Source: a virus
IMG/VR virus record: IMGVR_UViG_2718218054_000003
DNA length: 64,000 nt
Strand: one strand, 5' to 3'
Shown here piece after piece: positions 3,913 to 50,600 of this stretch (positions are counted from its first letter, which is position 1; every line of letters begins with the position of its first letter). The notes under the pieces were generated by a model. It did not search any database. It was not told the DNA's origin and worked only from the letters and a program-made list of their open reading frames with translations. The position numbers and the translations under genes were made by a program.

Positions 3913-4308
3913 GTGACGCCTTTGTTGTGTCCACACCGTCTCGCGTCTCGCGATTCTGAACGAGACGGGCGGCTTGTGGCGGTCGACAACACCGCCTACG
4001 CCTGGCGCAACGCGGCCGACGAGTGGCGCTGCTACCAGCAGCTCCCCGCCGACTTCGTCCACGACCACCGCGCTGCTCTGGACGAGGCCGCGACCTCGTT
4101 GTTCGCCCCCGTCCTGGTCGAGGCCTGGGCCGAGCGCGGCTACGCGGTCGAGTTCATCTCGGACGGCGACGCGATGCAGCACCGCCCCCACGACCCCAGC
4201 GACGAGACGTACGGCCAGGTCTGGGACGAGGCCGCCTACCGCCTCGACCCCTACGCCGTCGTCCGCGCCGCCCGGCTCGACGACGTCCTGCCCACCTACG
4301 CCGACTGA
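3913..4308 (+). CDS. Hypothetical protein
   Basis: GGAGG RBS, GTG start, strong GC3 bias. Confidence 0.7.
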   Translation: MTPLLCPHRLASRDSERDGRLVAVDNTAYAWRNAADEWRCYQQLPADFVHDHRAALDEAATSLFAPVLVEAWAERGYAVEFISDGDAMQHRPHDPSDETYGQVWDEAAYRLDPYAVVRAARLDDVLPTYAD

Positions 4309-6302: not shown

Positions 6303-6970
6303 CGGACACGACCATGGAGCACCCCCGCTTCGGGAAGAATCCCACCAGGTCCACCTTGATACAGATCGACCAGATCACCGCCTGGATCAGGGAGCAGACG
6401 AAGCCGTTCAGCGTCATGGACGCCTTTAACGCCAAGAGGTCCTGGTCCTACAACACGACCTACAAGCTGGTCCGCGAACTCCGCGACAAGAACCTGCTGC
6501 GGCAGACGAACGACGTCGACGCCCGACCCGCATTGTGGATCTACAACGCACCGACCGAATCTCTGGTCACGATCACGACGAAGTCCGAGAACCACCTGAC
6601 TCAGCAGGAACTCTGCGACGAGGCACGCCGCCGGTTCGGCGACGACACCAAGCAGTGGGCGTTCATCTGTCCGAAATGCTCCGATATCGCCTGCGCCGCC
6701 GACTTCATCGCGATCGGTGCCGACCCGTACCTCGTCGGCCAGGAGTGCATCGGCCGATCCTGCGGCGCACTGGCCAAGGCAGCCACCGGAACCGACGGCC
6801 GCCAGCACGCCAAGCGCGGATGCGACTGGGCCGCATACGGGCTATTCGCCGGGCCCTGGTTCATCACCGTGCCGACCAAGGACGGCGGTACCAAGGAACT
6901 TCCCAGCTTCAAACTCGCACCGCACCGCGCGCCGCAGCACGTGCGTGAGCCCGCCGAGGTGATCGCGTGA
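6299..6970 (+). CDS. N-terminal wHTH-like domain plus VVA0879-family-like domain
   Basis: RRFGDD..WAFICPKC, GQECIGR, GCDWAAYGL motifs. Confidence 0.65.
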   Translation: MTDTTMEHPRFGKNPTRSTLIQIDQITAWIREQTKPFSVMDAFNAKRSWSYNTTYKLVRELRDKNLLRQTNDVDARPALWIYNAPTESLVTITTKSENHLTQQELCDEARRRFGDDTKQWAFICPKCSDIACAADFIAIGADPYLVGQECIGRSCGALAKAATGTDGRQHAKRGCDWAAYGLFAGPWFITVPTKDGGTKELPSFKLAPHRAPQHVREPAEVIA

Positions 6971-7254
6971 ACGTCCGAGCCTGGCTCGCATTGATCATCG
7001 TCGTCGCGGTGGTGCTCGCCGCCAACGACTCACCCGACGAAACCGCGCCGACGGTCACGGACCAGTCCCGTTGGCTGTTCACCGAAGCCAGCTGCGACGA
7101 GAACGACACCGCGTTCAACGTCAAGCCCGACACCCCCGAGGCGTGGAGCAGCGCCCAGGACTGGTGCATCCGCTCCGGCGAAGCGATCAACAACCTCCCG
7201 TGGCCCTCGGGCTTCAAGCCCACCACCATCCCCGAAGGCGTCGTGATCCCGTGA
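6967..7254 (+). CDS. Hypothetical secreted or membrane protein
   Basis: N-terminal hydrophobic segment. Confidence 0.6.
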   Translation: MNVRAWLALIIVVAVVLAANDSPDETAPTVTDQSRWLFTEASCDENDTAFNVKPDTPEAWSSAQDWCIRSGEAINNLPWPSGFKPTTIPEGVVIP

Positions 7255-7790
7255 GCTACGTTCCGCTCCGCAAGGGGCACCCCGACAACCCGGACCTCGT
7301 CGGCCTCCCCGACGACGCCTACGACCGCCTGGTCCCGCTCGGCGACCTGATCGAGGCCTCCCACAATGAGGGCTACCACCAGTCCGAGTGCAACTGCCGC
7401 GAGACCAACTGCAACACCCGCAAGCATCACTGGGCCACACCCTCCGTCGAGGAAGTCCTCGGCTGGCTCATCGCCAAAGGCGCGCTCACCTTCGACGCCG
7501 TCGACCACCTGGTTCGCGTCGGCAAGGGCTGGAGCGTCGACAAGGCGCCGGGCGACCTCGGCGCCGACGTCGCCAACGTCGCCCGGCTCGTCCTCACCGA
7601 ACGCCACTCCGGCACCTCGTTCGTCCAGCGCAAGCTCCGCCTCGGCTTCAAGCGCGCCGAGGATTGCCTGGACGTGCTGACGGCCTGGAACATCCTCGGC
7701 CCCGCACAGGGCACCCTCGCCCGCGCCATCCACGTCCCCGCAGACCAGACCGCCGCCGTGCTGGCCGCCATCGAGGCGGTGCGCGCATGA
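7251..7790 (+). CDS. Protein with C-terminal FtsK gamma (winged-helix) domain
   Basis: SFVQRKLRLGFKRAEDCLDVLTAWNILGPAQG resembles FtsK-gamma consensus SxLQRxLRIGYxRAxxxxDxLExxGIVGP. Confidence 0.7.
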   Translation: MSYVPLRKGHPDNPDLVGLPDDAYDRLVPLGDLIEASHNEGYHQSECNCRETNCNTRKHHWATPSVEEVLGWLIAKGALTFDAVDHLVRVGKGWSVDKAPGDLGADVANVARLVLTERHSGTSFVQRKLRLGFKRAEDCLDVLTAWNILGPAQGTLARAIHVPADQTAAVLAAIEAVRA

Positions 7791-9727: not shown

Positions 9728-11856
9728 GCCGTGCCGCACAGCGCCTGCAGCGCGTCGCCACCCATCGCCCCGCCGTGCGCCGCCGCCGCTTCCGCCACGA
9801 CGAGCTCGTCGCCGTCGACCTGTTCAGCGGCTTCGGCGGCCTCACCGAGGGAATCCGTCGCGCCGGATTCACCACGATCATGGCCGCCAACCACAACGAG
9901 TACAAAGTCCAGGTCCACGAAGCGAACCACCCGTACGCCGAGCACTGGATCGCGAACCTCGTCGACAAGGAGTCCTCGGACTACCACGACGTCCGACAGC
10001 TCCCTGCCGCCGACCTCCTCGTTGCCGGCGTGTCCTGCACCAACCATTCCCAGGCCAACACGAAGAAGGCCTACGCCGAGGGCCTGTCGCTGTTCGACCT
10101 CGACGACCCCGAGTACAACGAGCGCGTCACCCGGTCCGAACGGGACCGTGCGACCGCCTCGTGCGTGCTGCACTACGCAGCCCAGCACCGACCCCGCATG
10201 ATCCTGGTCGAGTGCACCACCGAGATCGTCTCGTGGGGACCAGCCCTGCCCGGAAAGAAGATCGGTGACGGGACCACCTACAAGTGGTGGCTCAAGCAGT
10301 TCGACCTGCTCGGCTACCGGCACAAGGTCATGTACCTCAACACCCAGTTCTTCGGCGTCTCCCAGAGCCGCGACCGGTGGTTCTGCGCGATGTGGCTCAA
10401 AGAGATGCCCCCACCGGACCTCGACCACCGGCCGCACTCGTGGTGCGACCGGTGCCACACGATCGTCGAAGCCGTGTGGACCTGGAAAACGGGCATCCCG
10501 CCGACCGGAAGCGTGAGGTACGGCAAGCAGTACAACTACACCTGCCCCAGCTGCCGCCGCGAAGTCATTCCGCCGATGGCCCCCTCGATCAACTCCCTGG
10601 ACCTCACCGACCTCGGCACCCGCATCGGCGACCGCGAGATCAAGAGGTTCGTGGACAAGAAGACCGGTGAGGTCACCTGGTCGCAGATGGCGCCCGCCAC
10701 GATGGCCCGCGCCGAGCGCTGCCTCCAGCGGTTCGGGGACTTCCCTGCGGTGCTGATGCCTGCCAAGGCGGTGCACGGTACCGAGCGGCACCCGTGGCAG
10801 CCCATGTCCACCCAGACGAGCCAGCAGGAAACCTCCGTGCTGTCGACTGGCGCGGTCATGGCGGCGGCTGGAAACACCTACGAGAGGCCGGGCTCGGACT
10901 GCCGCAGCCGCGACCTGTCGCAGCCGTTGTGGGCGCAGCCGGCGACGAACACGACCGGCCTCGTGACGCCGCCAGTCGCGCTCACGGGCATGGTGACCGT
11001 CGGCCACCGGCACAACGGCGACGGCCAGCACTTCCTCAGGCCAATGGACACCGTCACCAGCACGCACGAGAAGGCCGTCGTGTACGCCGCGGTCGACAAC
11101 TTCCAGGGAGCGCCTCGCGGAGTCGGGGAACCGCTGGCCACTCAGGGCGGGTCAGAGACGATGGGCCTGCTCTCGGCGCGAGTGATGCCGAACCGGACAC
11201 ACGCGACCAGCCGCAACCTCGGCGAGCCGATGGAGACGGTTGTCGGAGGCGCCGGATCCGGCGGCATCGGCATGCTCTCCAGCGGAGTCGTGCCGTTCCG
11301 GAAGAACACCATCCCCACAGTGCACGGCGAGCCGATGCCCGCCGTCACCTCCGACCAGATCCCGGGCCTGCTGACCGCCGCCGGCGTCATCAAGAACAAC
11401 GGCTCGATCGACGAGGCGCAGTACCGGTCTCACCCCGTGAGCGACCCGCTGGGCACCGTGGTCGGCTCCGGCGCGCACCAGTCGCTCCTCTTCTCGGTCT
11501 GGTACAAGCAGAACGGCTCTGAGGCCAACGCAACCGCACCGCACCCGCTGAGCGACCCGTTCGGCACCCTCACCTCCCGCGACACCACTGCGGTGCTGGG
11601 CGCCGAGTGGCGCGCAATGCTCGCCGACATCAGCTTGTTGGACTGCTTCTTCAAGATGCTCGGCCCGCACGAGATCGGCCGCGGATGTGGGTTCGACGTC
11701 AGCTTCCCCGGCTATGGCTACGAAGGCACGTTCCAGGTATGGGGCTCCGCCCGGGACCAGGTCGACGGCTTCGGCAACGCCGTCACGCCGGCTGTCGGCG
11801 AGTGGATCGGCCACCGGCTGCGCGAAGCCCTGCACCGCACCGAGTCCGTCGCATGA
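9724..11856 (+). CDS. DNA cytosine-C5 methyltransferase with long repeated variable region
   Basis: DLFSGFGG motif I, catalytic Cys in GVSC, QSRDRWF, C-terminal GNAVTP. Confidence 0.88.
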   Translation: MSRAAQRLQRVATHRPAVRRRRFRHDELVAVDLFSGFGGLTEGIRRAGFTTIMAANHNEYKVQVHEANHPYAEHWIANLVDKESSDYHDVRQLPAADLLVAGVSCTNHSQANTKKAYAEGLSLFDLDDPEYNERVTRSERDRATASCVLHYAAQHRPRMILVECTTEIVSWGPALPGKKIGDGTTYKWWLKQFDLLGYRHKVMYLNTQFFGVSQSRDRWFCAMWLKEMPPPDLDHRPHSWCDRCHTIVEAVWTWKTGIPPTGSVRYGKQYNYTCPSCRREVIPPMAPSINSLDLTDLGTRIGDREIKRFVDKKTGEVTWSQMAPATMARAERCLQRFGDFPAVLMPAKAVHGTERHPWQPMSTQTSQQETSVLSTGAVMAAAGNTYERPGSDCRSRDLSQPLWAQPATNTTGLVTPPVALTGMVTVGHRHNGDGQHFLRPMDTVTSTHEKAVVYAAVDNFQGAPRGVGEPLATQGGSETMGLLSARVMPNRTHATSRNLGEPMETVVGGAGSGGIGMLSSGVVPFRKNTIPTVHGEPMPAVTSDQIPGLLTAAGVIKNNGSIDEAQYRSHPVSDPLGTVVGSGAHQSLLFSVWYKQNGSEANATAPHPLSDPFGTLTSRDTTAVLGAEWRAMLADISLLDCFFKMLGPHEIGRGCGFDVSFPGYGYEGTFQVWGSARDQVDGFGNAVTPAVGEWIGHRLREALHRTESVA

Positions 11857-46722: not shown

Positions 46723-46764
46723 GGTCGTGCCCTTCAGGCGATGGGGAGGTGGCTGGCACCTGCG

Positions 46765-46836
46765 CCCCATCACGGGCACGCGGGTCGGAGGTCTTGCTGG
46801 GTCCGATCACCGGATGCGGTGGACGCCCATCACGGG
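46765..46836 (-). repeat. Two CCCGTGATGGG mini-hairpins in capsid 5' leader
   Basis: Direct repeat at about 46766 and 46826. Confidence 0.65.
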
Positions 46837-46909
46837 CCGTACACCTGGCCGAAGAATACACGCTTAGTCAGGCAAAGCTACGACGAAACGGCGGAAGATA
46901 GATCGCGCT

Positions 46910-46931
46910 ACCGAAGATTCGTCGGTACGAT
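46910..46931. promoter_or_regulatory. Operator-like site ACCGAAGATTCGTCGGT adjoining -10 TACGAT of the RNA operon
   Basis: Motif recurs at 46849, 57571, 59765, 59802, 63467, 63499. Confidence 0.6.
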
Positions 46932-46939
46932 GCGCCCAT

Positions 46940-47087
46940 GTCCTGCTAGTAGTTCAGCGGCCTAAGACGCCGCGATCGTGGAGATCGAGTCTCCTGCGGG
47001 GACCCGTTGATCCAGCACCCCGCGAACCCCGGCAAGGGGAGTGACACCGATCGCGGAAGCGCCGGTTCAAATCCGGTCGGCGGGACA
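46940..47087 (+). ncRNA. tRNA-bodied RNA with a 77-nt structured insert replacing the anticodon loop
   Basis: Acceptor stem, D arm GTTCAGCGGCCTAAGAC, anticodon stem CCGCG/CGCGG, T arm GCCGG-TTCAAAT-CCGGT; insert 46975-47051 folds into three hairpins. Confidence 0.8.
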
Positions 47088-47088
47088 T

Positions 47089-47172
47089 GGAAGGCGGCGC
47101 CGAGGTCGGCAAACCGGTCTTGAAAACCGGGCCGGGCCTAACAGCCTGGGGGTTCGATACCTCCGCCTTCTG
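47089..47172 (+). tRNA. tRNA-Ser(UGA), short D-loop
   Basis: GGAAGGC/GCCTTCT; CCGGT-CT-TGA-AA-ACCGG; long variable arm; G73. Confidence 0.8.
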
Positions 47173-47185
47173 CTGATGCTCGACT

Positions 47186-47269
47186 GGAAGACGGCGGCGC
47201 TGGTGCGCCAGATCGGTTGCTAACCGGTCGCCGGGCGAGAGCCCGAGGGTTCGATCCCTTCGTCTTCCG
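47186..47269 (+). tRNA. tRNA-Ser(GCU)
   Basis: GGAAGAC/GTCTTCC; ATCGG-TT-GCT-AA-CCGGT; variable arm with GAGA loop; G73. Confidence 0.85.
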
Positions 47270-47277
47270 CGCAGCAA

Positions 47278-47349
47278 GGCCGGTGAGCCATACGGTTGAG
47301 GCACCGCCCTTTCAAGGCGGGGAACCGGGTTCGATTCCCGGATCGGCTA
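47278..47349 (+). tRNA. tRNA-Glu(UUC)
   Basis: GGCCGGT/ATCGGCT; CCGCC-CT-TTC-AA-GGCGG; CCGGG-TTCGATT-CCCGG. Confidence 0.88.
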
Positions 47350-47351
47350 CA

Positions 47352-47441
47352 GCTCGGCGAAGTCGAAAGAGGCGTGGCGCCCCACGTCGAGTCGAGAGGC
47401 AGCAGGGTCCCGTCAGAGATGCGGGACAGCCCGTGGCAGCC
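47352..47441 (+). ncRNA. Unassigned structured RNA between tRNA-Glu and tRNA-fMet
   Basis: GCTCGGCG/CGTCGAGT stem; GTCCCG/CGGGAC stem; GNRA loops; no T-loop. Confidence 0.5.
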
Positions 47442-47525: not shown

Positions 47526-47560
47526 AAGGGCCCGCCCGGATGTCACCGGGCGGGCCCTTT
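47526..47560. terminator. Bidirectional terminator between RNA operon and Ro60 gene
   Basis: AAGGGCCCGCCCGG/CCGGGCGGGCCCTT stem followed by T run. Confidence 0.8.
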
Positions 47561-47572
47561 GTCACATGCCGT

Positions 47573-49216
47573 TCAGAACGGCCAGGTGGCGTCTCGGCCG
47601 GACTCGAGCCACGGGATCATCTTGAAGGCCGCGTCGGTCAGGCCGCCGAAGGTGTGCCGGTTCCGCGCTCCGGAGCGGGTGTTGCCGTGCTGGTAGCCAC
47701 CCAGGTTCCACACGTACACCGGCGTGCTGCCCGGCACCGAGGCGGCAGCGTCAGCCGAGGCCGACTGCTCGTCGGTCACGATGATCACGCGGTCGTGGCC
47801 GGCGAAGTGCTCGCGCACCGCAGCTGCCGTGTCCGTGTAGCTGATCGGGTCGCCGAGGCCGTCGACGAACTTCAGCAACGACCCGCCGCGGGGCGGGTCG
47901 ACCTTGCGGCTCGTGCCACCGAACAGCACGGTCGTGGCGTTGGCCGCGCGCATCGCAACCGCGCAACCGAACACCGCCGCCTGGTCCGCGCACGTGATGT
48001 CCGACTTGGACGGCGTCGAGAAGTGGTAGCCGGGGAACATCGACGGCGACCGGTCGATCAGCACGAGCGTCCGCCCCGGCAGCGCGGGCACGTTCCGCAG
48101 GGACGCCTGCAGCGCCTTCTCCAGTGTGTGCCCCCACCGCAGCGACGGCGCGGCCCGGTACGCGGCCAGGAACCGGAACGGGAACTGCTGCGACCGCTCC
48201 ACCTGCGCGGGGTCCGCCAGCTTCGCCGCGACCTCTGCTGCGACCTCGTCCGAGACGCCGGCCTCGTCGAAGTTCCTGAGCTGACGGAGCAACGCCATGT
48301 AGCCCATGGTCGGGACGAGCGCCTCCCACACCTGCGCGGTCATCGGGCCCTGCAGCCACCCGGCGACCGACTCCCACGTCATGCCTGCCTGCCGCAGCAC
48401 CGAGGAGACGGCGTCGCGGTCACGGTCGAACAGGGCACGGCGCTTCTCGACCGGCCACTTCATCAGCTCGGCGCGCGCAGCCATCATCTCGAGCCGGGCG
48501 GGGATGGCGGCTTCGTTGTCGCGTCGCCGGTCGAGCATGTGCTGGAACAGGTCGCCCTGCCAGTCCGCCTTCGGTGACGGGTGCGCGAGGTTCAGCACGT
48601 CGGCCATGCGGAAGCCGCGGGCGGTGCTGTCCCACTTCAGCACCGCGCGCTCGTCCCACAGGCGCTGGATGGCGTCGGCGATGCCGCGCTTCACGGGCTT
48701 GGGCACCTTGCGTCCGTGCACCGCGGTCCAGTAGGCGAGGAGTTCGCCGGGCTCGTCGGCGCGCTGCAGCACGGACTCGATGACGTTGCGGTTGGCGGCC
48801 AGCACGTAGTTGAGGTGGTCGCCGTCGAACGTGCCGTCGAGCGCCTGCGTCTCGTGCTGGTCGGCCGGGCGCGTGCCGGCGGCGGCGAGGCGGGCGTGCA
48901 CGTACTCGGCCGCGCCGACGAGCGATGCCGTGCGCATGTTCGCCTCGGTGCGCAGCCAGAGCAGGAACCGGGCCGTCCACGCCGGATCCTCCAGCGCGAC
49001 GGTGCGCACGAGGTCGGCGTAGCGGACGTCGCGCTTCTCGGCGGACTCGTAGAAGGTGTCGGTGCCGACCATGTTGGACACGGCGTGCAGGAACAGCTCG
49101 GACTTGGTGTCGCGCGCGAAGGCCTCGCCGCCCTGGTGATTGCGGGCGATCGTGGGCGTGCTGACGACCGGGCTGGAGACAGCCGGTCGGACCCCTTGGG
49201 TGTTGAATCGTGCCAC
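47573..49216 (-). CDS. rsr: Ro60/TROVE-domain RNA-binding protein with vWA domain
   Basis: MARFN start, YLR..ANMRT-like WLRTEANMRTASL, QRADEPGE, KWD, MGYMALLRQLRNF, QFPFRFLAAY, MIDAS DRSPS, IVTDEQ. Confidence 0.93.
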   Translation of the reverse strand: MARFNTQGVRPAVSSPVVSTPTIARNHQGGEAFARDTKSELFLHAVSNMVGTDTFYESAEKRDVRYADLVRTVALEDPAWTARFLLWLRTEANMRTASLVGAAEYVHARLAAAGTRPADQHETQALDGTFDGDHLNYVLAANRNVIESVLQRADEPGELLAYWTAVHGRKVPKPVKRGIADAIQRLWDERAVLKWDSTARGFRMADVLNLAHPSPKADWQGDLFQHMLDRRRDNEAAIPARLEMMAARAELMKWPVEKRRALFDRDRDAVSSVLRQAGMTWESVAGWLQGPMTAQVWEALVPTMGYMALLRQLRNFDEAGVSDEVAAEVAAKLADPAQVERSQQFPFRFLAAYRAAPSLRWGHTLEKALQASLRNVPALPGRTLVLIDRSPSMFPGYHFSTPSKSDITCADQAAVFGCAVAMRAANATTVLFGGTSRKVDPPRGGSLLKFVDGLGDPISYTDTAAAVREHFAGHDRVIIVTDEQSASADAAASVPGSTPVYVWNLGGYQHGNTRSGARNRHTFGGLTDAAFKMIPWLESGRDATWPF

Positions 49217-49248
49217 AGGCTCAACCTCTCTGCGAGAGGGAGCTACAG

Positions 49249-49399
49249 CCTCACACGGGCCCGAGGTCAAGTCGGTGAAGGTGACAATGCGTCCTGGGCC
49301 GCTAGACCACGTCGACATGAAGCCGACGGCAGGATTCGAACCTGCGCCTCACCTTTTGCAGAGGAAGTAACCCTCGCCTGCGCACCGGGCCGTGTGAAG
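49249..49399 (-). ncRNA. yrlA: YrlA-type Y RNA with circularly permuted tRNA-like domain
   Basis: Order T arm (GCAGG-TTCGAAT-CCTGC), acceptor closed by loop (CGTCGGC-TTCAT-GTCGACG), D arm (GTCTAGCGGCCCAGGAC); terminal stem with TTGACC; directly upstream of Ro60. Confidence 0.85.
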
Positions 49400-49406
49400 T
49401 TGTTGG

Positions 49407-49475
49407 CTCCCGAGATCAGGGCGCCGACGGTGGGTTTCTTTACGAGAGAAGTAACCGTCGGCTTCGCACCGGGAG
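49407..49475 (-). ncRNA. Second, short Y-like RNA lacking the tRNA-like domain
   Basis: 5' 26 nt match the YrlA-like RNA at 23/26; terminal stem CTCCCG/CGGGAG; inner stem GCCGACGG/CCGTCGGC. Confidence 0.7.
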
Positions 49476-49518: not shown

Positions 49519-49935
49519 TCACACGACGGTGACGGTCTCCTCCGCCACCTCGCCGCTCACGATGCGAAACGACTTCACATCCGGCGGCATCCGGACGTTG
49601 CCGCGGTCGCGCGTCGCCACGATCACCCAGTGCGCCTCGGGAATCGTGGCGTGCTGGATGTCCAGCCTGGACGGGTACGCGTGCGTCGCCGTGTGCGAGT
49701 GGTAGATGACGACCGGCCGTTCCCGCTTCTCGGCCATCTCCTGCCACACCTCGATCTGTTCGTCCGGGTTAAACCGGTACGCCACGGTCGAGCGCTCGGC
49801 GTTGCGCATCGGCACGATCCGGTCCGGCACGTCGCCAGCGCGCGGGCCGGGCATAACACCGCAGGCCTCGATCGGGTGCTCGGCGCGGCAGTGCGCGAGC
49901 ATCGCGTCGAACAGGTGGCGGGGCATGGTCAGCAC
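49519..49935 (-). CDS. JAB/MPN+ metalloprotease, Mec (CysO-cysteine peptidase)-like
   Basis: EACG...YHSHTATHAYPSRLD (E, HxH-x7-S-xx-D). Confidence 0.9.
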   Translation of the reverse strand: MLTMPRHLFDAMLAHCRAEHPIEACGVMPGPRAGDVPDRIVPMRNAERSTVAYRFNPDEQIEVWQEMAEKRERPVVIYHSHTATHAYPSRLDIQHATIPEAHWVIVATRDRGNVRMPPDVKSFRIVSGEVAEETVTVV

Positions 49936-50600
49936 GGCGGCTCGGTCCCTTCGATCGCGGCGAGGACCTTCGTGACTCGATACGGCTGCTGGCACGACTC
50001 GCACCTCGGAAGCCCCCGGCGCATGCCGGACCTCTCGAACTCGGTGCCGTGGTACTGGCAGGACTTGGGCGCGTGCTTCAGCACGGACGCCGCGCGCAGC
50101 AGCTTCGCCTCAGCGCCGCCGGCGCGACGGGCCATCGCGACGAGCTCCTCCTGCAACGTCGCGTGCCCCGCTTGCTCGCACGCGGCACCGGCGGCCGCCG
50201 CGGCGAACAACATGCCGATCTGTTCCAGGCGCTGATCGACGGGCGTCTGGTTCCAGCGCGCCAGCCACTGGCCAGGCGTCGGACGCACGCCCTCGACCGG
50301 CTCCGTCGACGGGTCCTCGCCGGCGCGGAGCCACGCCACCTCCGCGCGCAGCCGCTCCAGCTCGGCGGCGTGCTCGTCGTCGTCCAGGTCGAGGAACACG
50401 AGGCGGGTCGCGCCGTCGTGGCCGTGCACGGTCTCGGCGCTCGCGAGGTCGTCCCAGTTCACTGTGGACTGGTGCTCGCCGCGCCACCGAATCGTGACCG
50501 TTCCGTCCGGCCACAGGACGCCGTCCGCGACCCGGCCGGTGCCGGACGCGCCGGTGACGTCAGTGCGGCGGTCGAGGTAGAACCTGTGAGGTTCAGCCAC
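49929..50600 (-). CDS. Conserved-looking phage hypothetical protein
   Basis: DVTGASGTG.VADGV.WPDG.V..RW, HGHDG.T. Confidence 0.7.
   Translation of the reverse strand: MAEPHRFYLDRRTDVTGASGTGRVADGVLWPDGTVTIRWRGEHQSTVNWDDLASAETVHGHDGATRLVFLDLDDDEHAAELERLRAEVAWLRAGEDPSTEPVEGVRPTPGQWLARWNQTPVDQRLEQIGMLFAAAAAGAACEQAGHATLQEELVAMARRAGGAEAKLLRAASVLKHAPKSCQYHGTEFERSGMRRGLPRCESCQQPYRVTKVLAAIEGTEPPC

Follow-up and report, generated by a model that had tools for sequence, protein, structure and literature searches.

RNAC and RNAD are small RNAs of the tRNA region of phage T4, and their function is unknown (PMC3014915, PMC9697503). Theta ribozymes, for which most reports concern gut phages of Bacteroidota and Bacillota, adopt a minimal HDV-like fold in which J4/2 supplies the catalytic C, and have their cleavage site no more than 5 nt from the end of a tRNA (Kienbeck et al. 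2024, PMC10879173). Bacterial Y RNAs (such as YrlA, YrlB and Yrn2) carry a GNCGAAN(0-1)G motif near the 5' end, and in D. radiodurans Yrn2 shares its transcript with a tRNA (Chen et al. 2014, PMC4201824). The raiA motif RNA, a trans-acting structured RNA of Actinomycetota, is about 200 nt long, with a P1 formed from its two ends and two pseudoknots (PMC10861870, PMC12968392).

Here we describe a 90-nt element of a prophage small-RNA operon that can be compared with each of these systems. The window (the whole stretch of DNA analysed, 64,000 nt of IMG/VR record IMGVR_UViG_2718218054_000003) is part of a prophage inside a complete 10-Mb genome. Its relatives point to a Pseudonocardiaceae affiliation, and the nearest named relatives of its TROVE protein come from Actinosynnema and Umezawaea. 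Like T4 RNAC and RNAD, to which we liken it by setting and not by sequence, the element is a non-tRNA small RNA in a phage tRNA cluster; the T4 species are late RNAs, and one copy of the element has a predicted late-type promoter. It differs from them in belonging to temperate actinobacterial phages and in apparently also forming a transcription unit of its own outside tRNA arrays. Its likeness to the raiA RNA is that of an Actinomycetota structured RNA which, for the element, would likewise act in trans. The short GAA-GUC word of the element presumably resembles the raiA junction, and membership in the raiA family was rejected given the absence of an Rfam match and of raiA-type helices among those common to all copies.

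The small-RNA operon and the homologues of its element

The minus strand of the window carries portal, scaffold, JAB, Ro60/TROVE and capsid genes, and a plus-strand small-RNA operon (mimic, Ser, Ser, Glu, element, fMet, inverted repeat) sits between the TROVE and capsid genes. Its features are as follows:

46926-46931, + strand: likely -10 box (TACGAT, a conserved hexamer) of the operon promoter, divergent from the capsid gene
46940-47087, + strand: anticodon-less tRNA mimic, the first gene of the operon, which assorts independently of the element
47089-47173, + strand: tRNA-Ser(UGA), operon member
47186-47270, + strand: tRNA-Ser(GCU), operon member
47278-47350, + strand: tRNA-Glu(UUC) without encoded CCA (ARAGORN), 5' neighbour of the element in the window and in sister phage L522 only
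47352-47441, + strand: 90-nt structured small RNA element, with homology from G47352 to about C47441
47446-47519, + strand: initiator-type tRNA-Met(CAU) (ARAGORN), 3' neighbour of the element
47526-47559, no strand assigned: 14-bp inverted repeat, a probable terminator, between tRNA-fMet and the convergent rsr
47573-49318, - strand: Ro60/Rsr (TROVE) gene, convergent on the operon (Pfam PF05731, E 7e-17; PHROG 850)

The -10-like hexamer is retained as TAyGAT or TATGCT in loci L522, L530 and L531, and a sigma-70 scan made no call at 46926-46931. The inverted repeat, of which L522 retains the arms around an altered loop, is without a T-run and likewise went uncalled. The mimic that opens the operon is tRNA-Glu-like and carries a large insert, and its homologues in L055, L530 and L531 stand behind the same divergent promoter; it occurs without the element in L055 and L530, together with it in L531, and is missing from L522. 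A different conserved hairpin-forming RNA stands behind this capsid-divergent promoter in L532 (about 7110-7610) and L533 (about 9950-10330, both - strand), followed by GC-rich structured DNA without a called gene. The non-coding leader of the capsid gene (46723-46860, - strand), in turn, contains repeated CCCATCACGGG-type words and is strongly conserved in L055, L522, L530-L533 and L535; it is a candidate structured leader or operator array.

A first-pass annotation had singled out the spacer between tRNA-Glu and tRNA-fMet as unusually long and had proposed that it holds a structured RNA, which would have been undermined by a lack of conservation in related arrays. ARAGORN bears out the length (a gap of 95 nt, compared to 12 and 7 nt between the other called tRNAs), and our comparisons recovered the element as a sharply bounded, conserved unit at three other phage loci. 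The known set comprises four loci and three distinct element sequences. In L522, which was reached via the closest TROVE relative, the array has the same order (Ser-Ser-Glu-element-fMet) and the element is identical at 90 of 90 positions, compared to 79% identity at third codon positions of the TROVE gene and 86-93% for the other three tRNAs. Since the run shared by the window and L522 is 209 nt long and spans tRNA-Glu, recent recombination, rather than selection, may explain this identity.

The L531 locus, reached via the JAB protein, contains a copy identical at 86 of 90 positions. It has no TROVE gene and no tRNA adjoining the element; the slot there holds a tRNA mimic, then a mini tRNA that has no anticodon arm, then a long hairpin RNA, which here takes the place of a tRNA as the 5' neighbour of the element. 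The mini tRNA-like gene and its successor, an RNA that combines a 9-bp hairpin with a perfect stem of 14 bp (z -2.7), occupy about 6518-6680 on the - strand, just upstream of the element. The third sequence belongs to another phage family (L473, L131 and G116) and is 78% identical to the window copy across the first 74 nt. In G116, which appears to be Actinosynnema mirum DSM 43827 (an identification we assume here), the element is flanked by a prophage's terminase and portal genes, and no tRNA is nearby. This was the sole match among 400 family genomes (BLAST E 8.8e-9), and the same copy is present as IMG/VR contig L131. Outside the element, the 60-kb G116 prophage shares no DNA similarity with the window at E<=1e-4, and the G116 genome (100% complete) contains no TROVE gene.

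The sequence around the element is unrelated in L531 and L473, and homology begins at G1 (G47352) in three unrelated 5' contexts, with a single copy of the element in each genome. The global alignment score of 90 compares to a maximum of 26 in 5000 random genome 96-mers. A 151-nt contig from wastewater run X1 spans tRNA-Glu and nt 1-75 of the element and differs by one change; since the run is probably DNA and the contig is one read length, it demonstrates a near-identical copy and not expression or ends. Judged from these alignments, the element is a real conserved unit, which is mobile between phages and independent of neighbouring tRNAs.

Further copies appear to be rare. BLAST of genus, family, order and class samples, together with covariance-model searches, recovered G116 alone; weak covariance-model matches (25-32 bits) were rejected, as the invariant words were missing on alignment and the best match lay inside coding DNA. 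Pattern scans of viral, genome and metagenome contigs returned, among the matches listed, the A. mirum-type copy or chance matches in coding DNA, and isolated phages and plasmids contained no match to the element. It is also missing from 80 capsid-relative loci and 47 portal-relative loci, and its absence from most sister phages examined indicates that it is dispensable. Rfam gave no match for the window copy at E<=10 and two unrelated matches at chance level (<12 bits) for the distant copy, and ARAGORN and Rfam found no cloverleaf with a T-loop in the element (i.e., it is neither a tRNA nor tRNA-like). A search of the accessible literature returned no description of the sequence or motif. We consider the element a new and rare RNA motif of a known general kind, with a small chance that it represents a new ribozyme class.

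The G116 prophage and its relatives share a promoter-like word, in which GTGACA is followed by 9 nt and a -10-like hexamer. Among these relatives (L473-L484), the word stands upstream of the portal gene, with the portal start codon 27-28 nt from the start of the word at 12 of 12 loci. The G116 prophage contains six copies located 27-28 nt before ORFs of 90-536 aa, and a seventh places G1 of the element at +28. The pattern anchored on start codons has 7 matches in this 60-kb prophage, compared to one in the 10-Mb host genome of the window, and the word is missing from the window's prophage. The word is probably a late promoter for leaderless transcripts, and G1 is exactly the predicted +1 of the element's own late-type promoter in G116. 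If so, the element would be its own transcription unit there, with G1 as its natural 5' end and the plus strand as the RNA. In L477 (about 3929-3980, + strand), a 52-nt insert lies between two copies of the promoter word, much as the element's slot does in G116, and forms a stem ending close to the portal start; its similarity to the element is not significant (p 0.12-0.37).

Fold of the element

Our model divides the element into two helical domains:

47353-47396, + strand: domain 1, with P1 (47353-58/47391-96, i.e., nt 2-7/40-45) enclosing an unpaired strand and hairpin P2
47359-64, + strand: invariant unpaired GAAGUC of domain 1
47371-77/47382-88, + strand: hairpin P2 of domain 1 (pair probabilities of the domain 0.78-0.83)
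47398-47441, + strand: domain 2, with an interrupted P3 (47398-403/47436-41) and GGG/CCC (47405-07/47430-32)
47409-15/47420-25, + strand: P4 capping P3, with a bulged U and a GNRA loop at 47416-19 (stem probability 0.74-1.0)

This model is near the minimum-energy fold of the window copy and of L531, and the minimum-energy fold of the distant (G116/L473) copy shares only P2 with it. Folding energy is no better than chance (z -1.35, with 21 of 200 shuffles folding equally well), so the case for the element rests on conservation. P1 is invariant across copies, and P2 contains one change from G-U to G-C, along with a change from U-A to C-G seen in the hand alignment only. An A-A mismatch of P3 is replaced by G-C in the distant copy, and the GNRA loop at 47416-19 varies between GAGA and GCGA. 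The changes in L531, which were found after the model was built, all fall at unpaired sites (4 of 4; P about 0.03-0.09), and the 15 changes in the distant copy leave every pair intact (P 2e-4, a value that is partly circular). Formal covariation is negligible given only three distinct sequences, and a pair-count tool applied to the MAFFT alignment found no two-sided change. The covariation support for the two-domain model is no more than suggestive, and the fold in its details is one that we infer from modelling.

The first-pass annotation had drawn somewhat different hairpins, with an 8-bp first helix that begins with a G-U pair just after tRNA-Glu, and GNRA loops on both stems. G47352 does lie 3 nt past the tRNA-Glu discriminator (A47349), both helices can form, and the GNRA loop of the second hairpin stands, with GCGA in two homologues. 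The supposed first loop (GAAA, 47365-68) does not, being altered in L531 and L473, with its closing pair broken in the run X1 contig. Of the two registers, the 8-bp helix (47352-59/47385-92) is less stable by 3.4-5.6 kcal/mol in each of the three sequences, and it draws on the variable unit of a short tandem repeat. In the distant copy, 7 of its 8 pairs are retained, the G-U first pair included, and in the folding model it could conceivably be an alternative state.

Two candidate readings of the conserved words were tried and rejected. A T-box-like arrangement (GAA in domain 1 and UGG in domain 2) has no Rfam support and places UGG on the wrong strand, and pairing of the invariant GAAGUC with host tRNAs was found for 1 of 92 tRNAs, matching chance expectation.

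Ribozyme, Y RNA and other explanations

It is very improbable that the element is a theta/HDV-like ribozyme that trims the 3' end of tRNA-Glu, the possibility raised by the position of its G-U pair. As in theta ribozymes, a G is found a few bases past a CCA-less phage tRNA in the window and L522, and G1 falls there within the +/-5 nt used for tRNA association (Kienbeck et al. 2024, PMC10879173); in the 8-bp register, every copy could also begin with a G-U pair. Unlike theta ribozymes, however, the element is about 90 nt long, contains no consistent nested double pseudoknot (P1-P2-P3-L3-P1.1), and lacks a conserved tRNA neighbour (two of the three distinct copies, those of L531 and G116, have no tRNA upstream), and its host group differs from the Bacteroidota and Bacillota of the gut phages in which they are mainly known. 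A strict HDV descriptor, which recovers the HDV genomic ribozyme as a control, found no plus-strand match in the window copy or the A. mirum-type copy. When relaxed, it gave two fits with a J4/2 core for the window copy, which start at A47351 and contain only 4 real P1 pairs; L531 yielded none with the core, and the G116 copy could not be fitted at all. P1.1, a usable L3, the J4/2 core and a conserved P2 are all missing. Furthermore, since the predicted start in G116 is G1, no 5' leader would be left to cut off. Taken together, the failed descriptor, the loss of the tRNA in G116 and L531, and the G116 start at G1 lead us to reject theta membership. The other half of the original suggestion, that of a structured RNA which may be a different motif, is supported.

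A self-cleaving ribozyme of an undescribed, non-HDV class is in keeping with the size of the element, its many invariant unpaired bases and its place inside polycistronic small-RNA operons. Such a catalyst would process the operon's RNAs by cutting polycistronic tRNA/small-RNA transcripts, either in the immediate vicinity of G1 or at an internal site. The sharp 5' border at a G, whatever stands upstream, would fit this role, and so would the L531 copy, where a 7-bp P1 with a G-U first pair, followed by GG, might form the active site together with the invariant bases. We nevertheless consider this explanation unlikely: the predicted +1 in G116 is G1, an exhaustive list of shared helices yields no conserved pseudoknot or multi-stem junction, and no Rfam ribozyme matched at E<=10. 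No hammerhead, twister or hairpin core word occurs in any copy, a pistol-like word in two copies is missing from the distant one, and none of the core words searched for (hammerhead, twister, twister-sister, pistol, hatchet and hairpin) is common to all three copies.

The Ro60 gene close by invites comparison with Y RNAs, and the element could be an atypical, YrlB-like Y RNA that binds the Ro60/Rsr ring of phage or host via nt 5-11. It contains an exact GNCGAAG at these positions, invariant in all copies, its length fits the Y RNA range of 80-130 nt, and in both the window and L522 about 130 bp separate it from the end of rsr. Residence in a tRNA operon would also have a precedent in the co-transcription of Yrn2 with a tRNA (Chen et al. 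2014, PMC4201824). Yet 1.5% of random 90-mers carry the 7-mer by chance within their first 18 nt, and in the window and L522 the element and rsr are encoded on opposite strands, whereas Y RNAs are expected on the same strand within 4 kb. Nor is rsr always alongside it, as no TROVE gene is present in the G116 genome or at the L531 locus. Structurally, forcing the ends to pair makes the fold 3.5-8.4 kcal/mol less favourable than without the constraint, T and D arms and a T-loop word are missing, and the Rfam tRNA and YrlA models gave no score. A longer signature common to phage and host Y-like RNAs is missing from the element as well, and on balance a Y RNA identity seems improbable.

Two explanations remain that do not invoke a free RNA. 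As a cis-acting element (a processing or stability signal, an attenuator or a ligand-sensing leader), it would serve the RNA or gene downstream, and its position upstream of the portal gene in G116, where a read-through transcript makes a 10-bp stem beside the portal start codon, is consistent with this, as are the two P1 registers, which could act as a switch. However, what lies downstream is a tRNA, a portal gene with its own promoter or, in L531, no same-strand feature, and the second register hangs on the variable tandem-repeat copy; we assign action in cis a low probability. It is quite unlikely that the conserved segment is no functional RNA at all (hitch-hiking DNA, a small mobile repeat or a small ORF). 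The unremarkable folding z-score would be compatible with this, and the two length differences to the distant copy are both multiples of three, with a GTG 2 nt before G1 there. But the window copy is without a start codon at the GTG position, and in the GTG frame of the distant copy all changes but one are non-synonymous; a coding reading was rejected, since no frame has a synonymous excess and the start-codon frame is non-synonymous. The element is single-copy in each genome and is conserved between phages without other DNA similarity at E<=1e-4 over 60 kb, and its G-U pairs and GNRA-preserving change point to an RNA from the plus strand.

Y-like RNAs occur elsewhere in these genomes. In the window, two lie directly upstream of rsr (49258-49391 and 49407-49475, - strand), one YrlA-like with permuted T and D arms and the other a shorter, YrlB-like hairpin; Rfam gave this pair no YrlA score and one weak tRNA match only. 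On the host chromosome, at least three Y-like RNAs in tandem precede a second rsr (G000:C1, about 3930500-3931100), and there is a third, partial TROVE match near 2.096 Mb. In the phage-like contig L523 (419-7653), a close TROVE relative is accompanied by two Y-like RNAs, and RtcB is encoded about 4.4 kb upstream of this relative.

Proposed action in trans and its implications

We think it reasonably probable that the element is a small phage RNA that stands on its own, is freed by the tRNA-processing enzymes of the host and works in trans, binding protein as a scaffold or decoy. It would be a free-standing small-RNA gene, carried as cargo between actinobacterial phages. In the window's prophage, it would be co-transcribed in the operon with the tRNA mimic, Ser, Ser, Glu and fMet; 3' trimming of the CCA-less tRNA-Glu would free its 5' end, and the RNase P cut at the 5' end of tRNA-fMet would set its 3' end. 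Processing of this kind would leave two extra 5' and four extra 3' bases, and the released RNA would be roughly 90-96 nt long. In the other phage family, the element would be made from its own promoter.

The two side-by-side domains may then expose bases that are invariant and unpaired (in GAAGUC, an A/GUG internal loop, ACAG and the GNRA loop) for binding of a host protein, as scaffold or decoy, and could thereby help the tRNA cargo or the phage withstand RNA-directed defence or decay. Since no downstream gene, tRNA neighbour or co-travelling protein is fixed (no gene for a partner protein travels with the element), we infer that it acts in trans on a host component. The element's site in sister phages is a swap slot for differing small-RNA cassettes, with Acb5-like and Tad3 genes nearby, and the window contains an Acb5-like homologue. 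The latter (49929-50600, - strand) adjoins the JAB gene and is 71% identical to an L531 protein annotated as Pfam PF26761 (Acb5); a Pfam scan of its own product gave no match. Two reports describe phage tRNAs as a counter to tRNA-targeting defences (PMC10264068, PMC11555353), the kind of setting in which an anti-defence role for the element might be sought.

The element offers a compact motif with three natural variants and defined ends, one copy of which sits, with a predicted promoter of its own, in a complete genome that is apparently that of a cultured strain, A. mirum. Its slot belongs to a family of actinobacterial phages in which tRNAs, mimics and further RNAs are swapped beside Ro60 and anti-defence-like genes. 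T4 RNAC and RNAD first showed that phage tRNA clusters can encode RNAs other than tRNAs, and the element is a compact new example. If it proves to cleave, it would found a new ribozyme class; if it is a decoy, it would represent RNA-based counter-defence.
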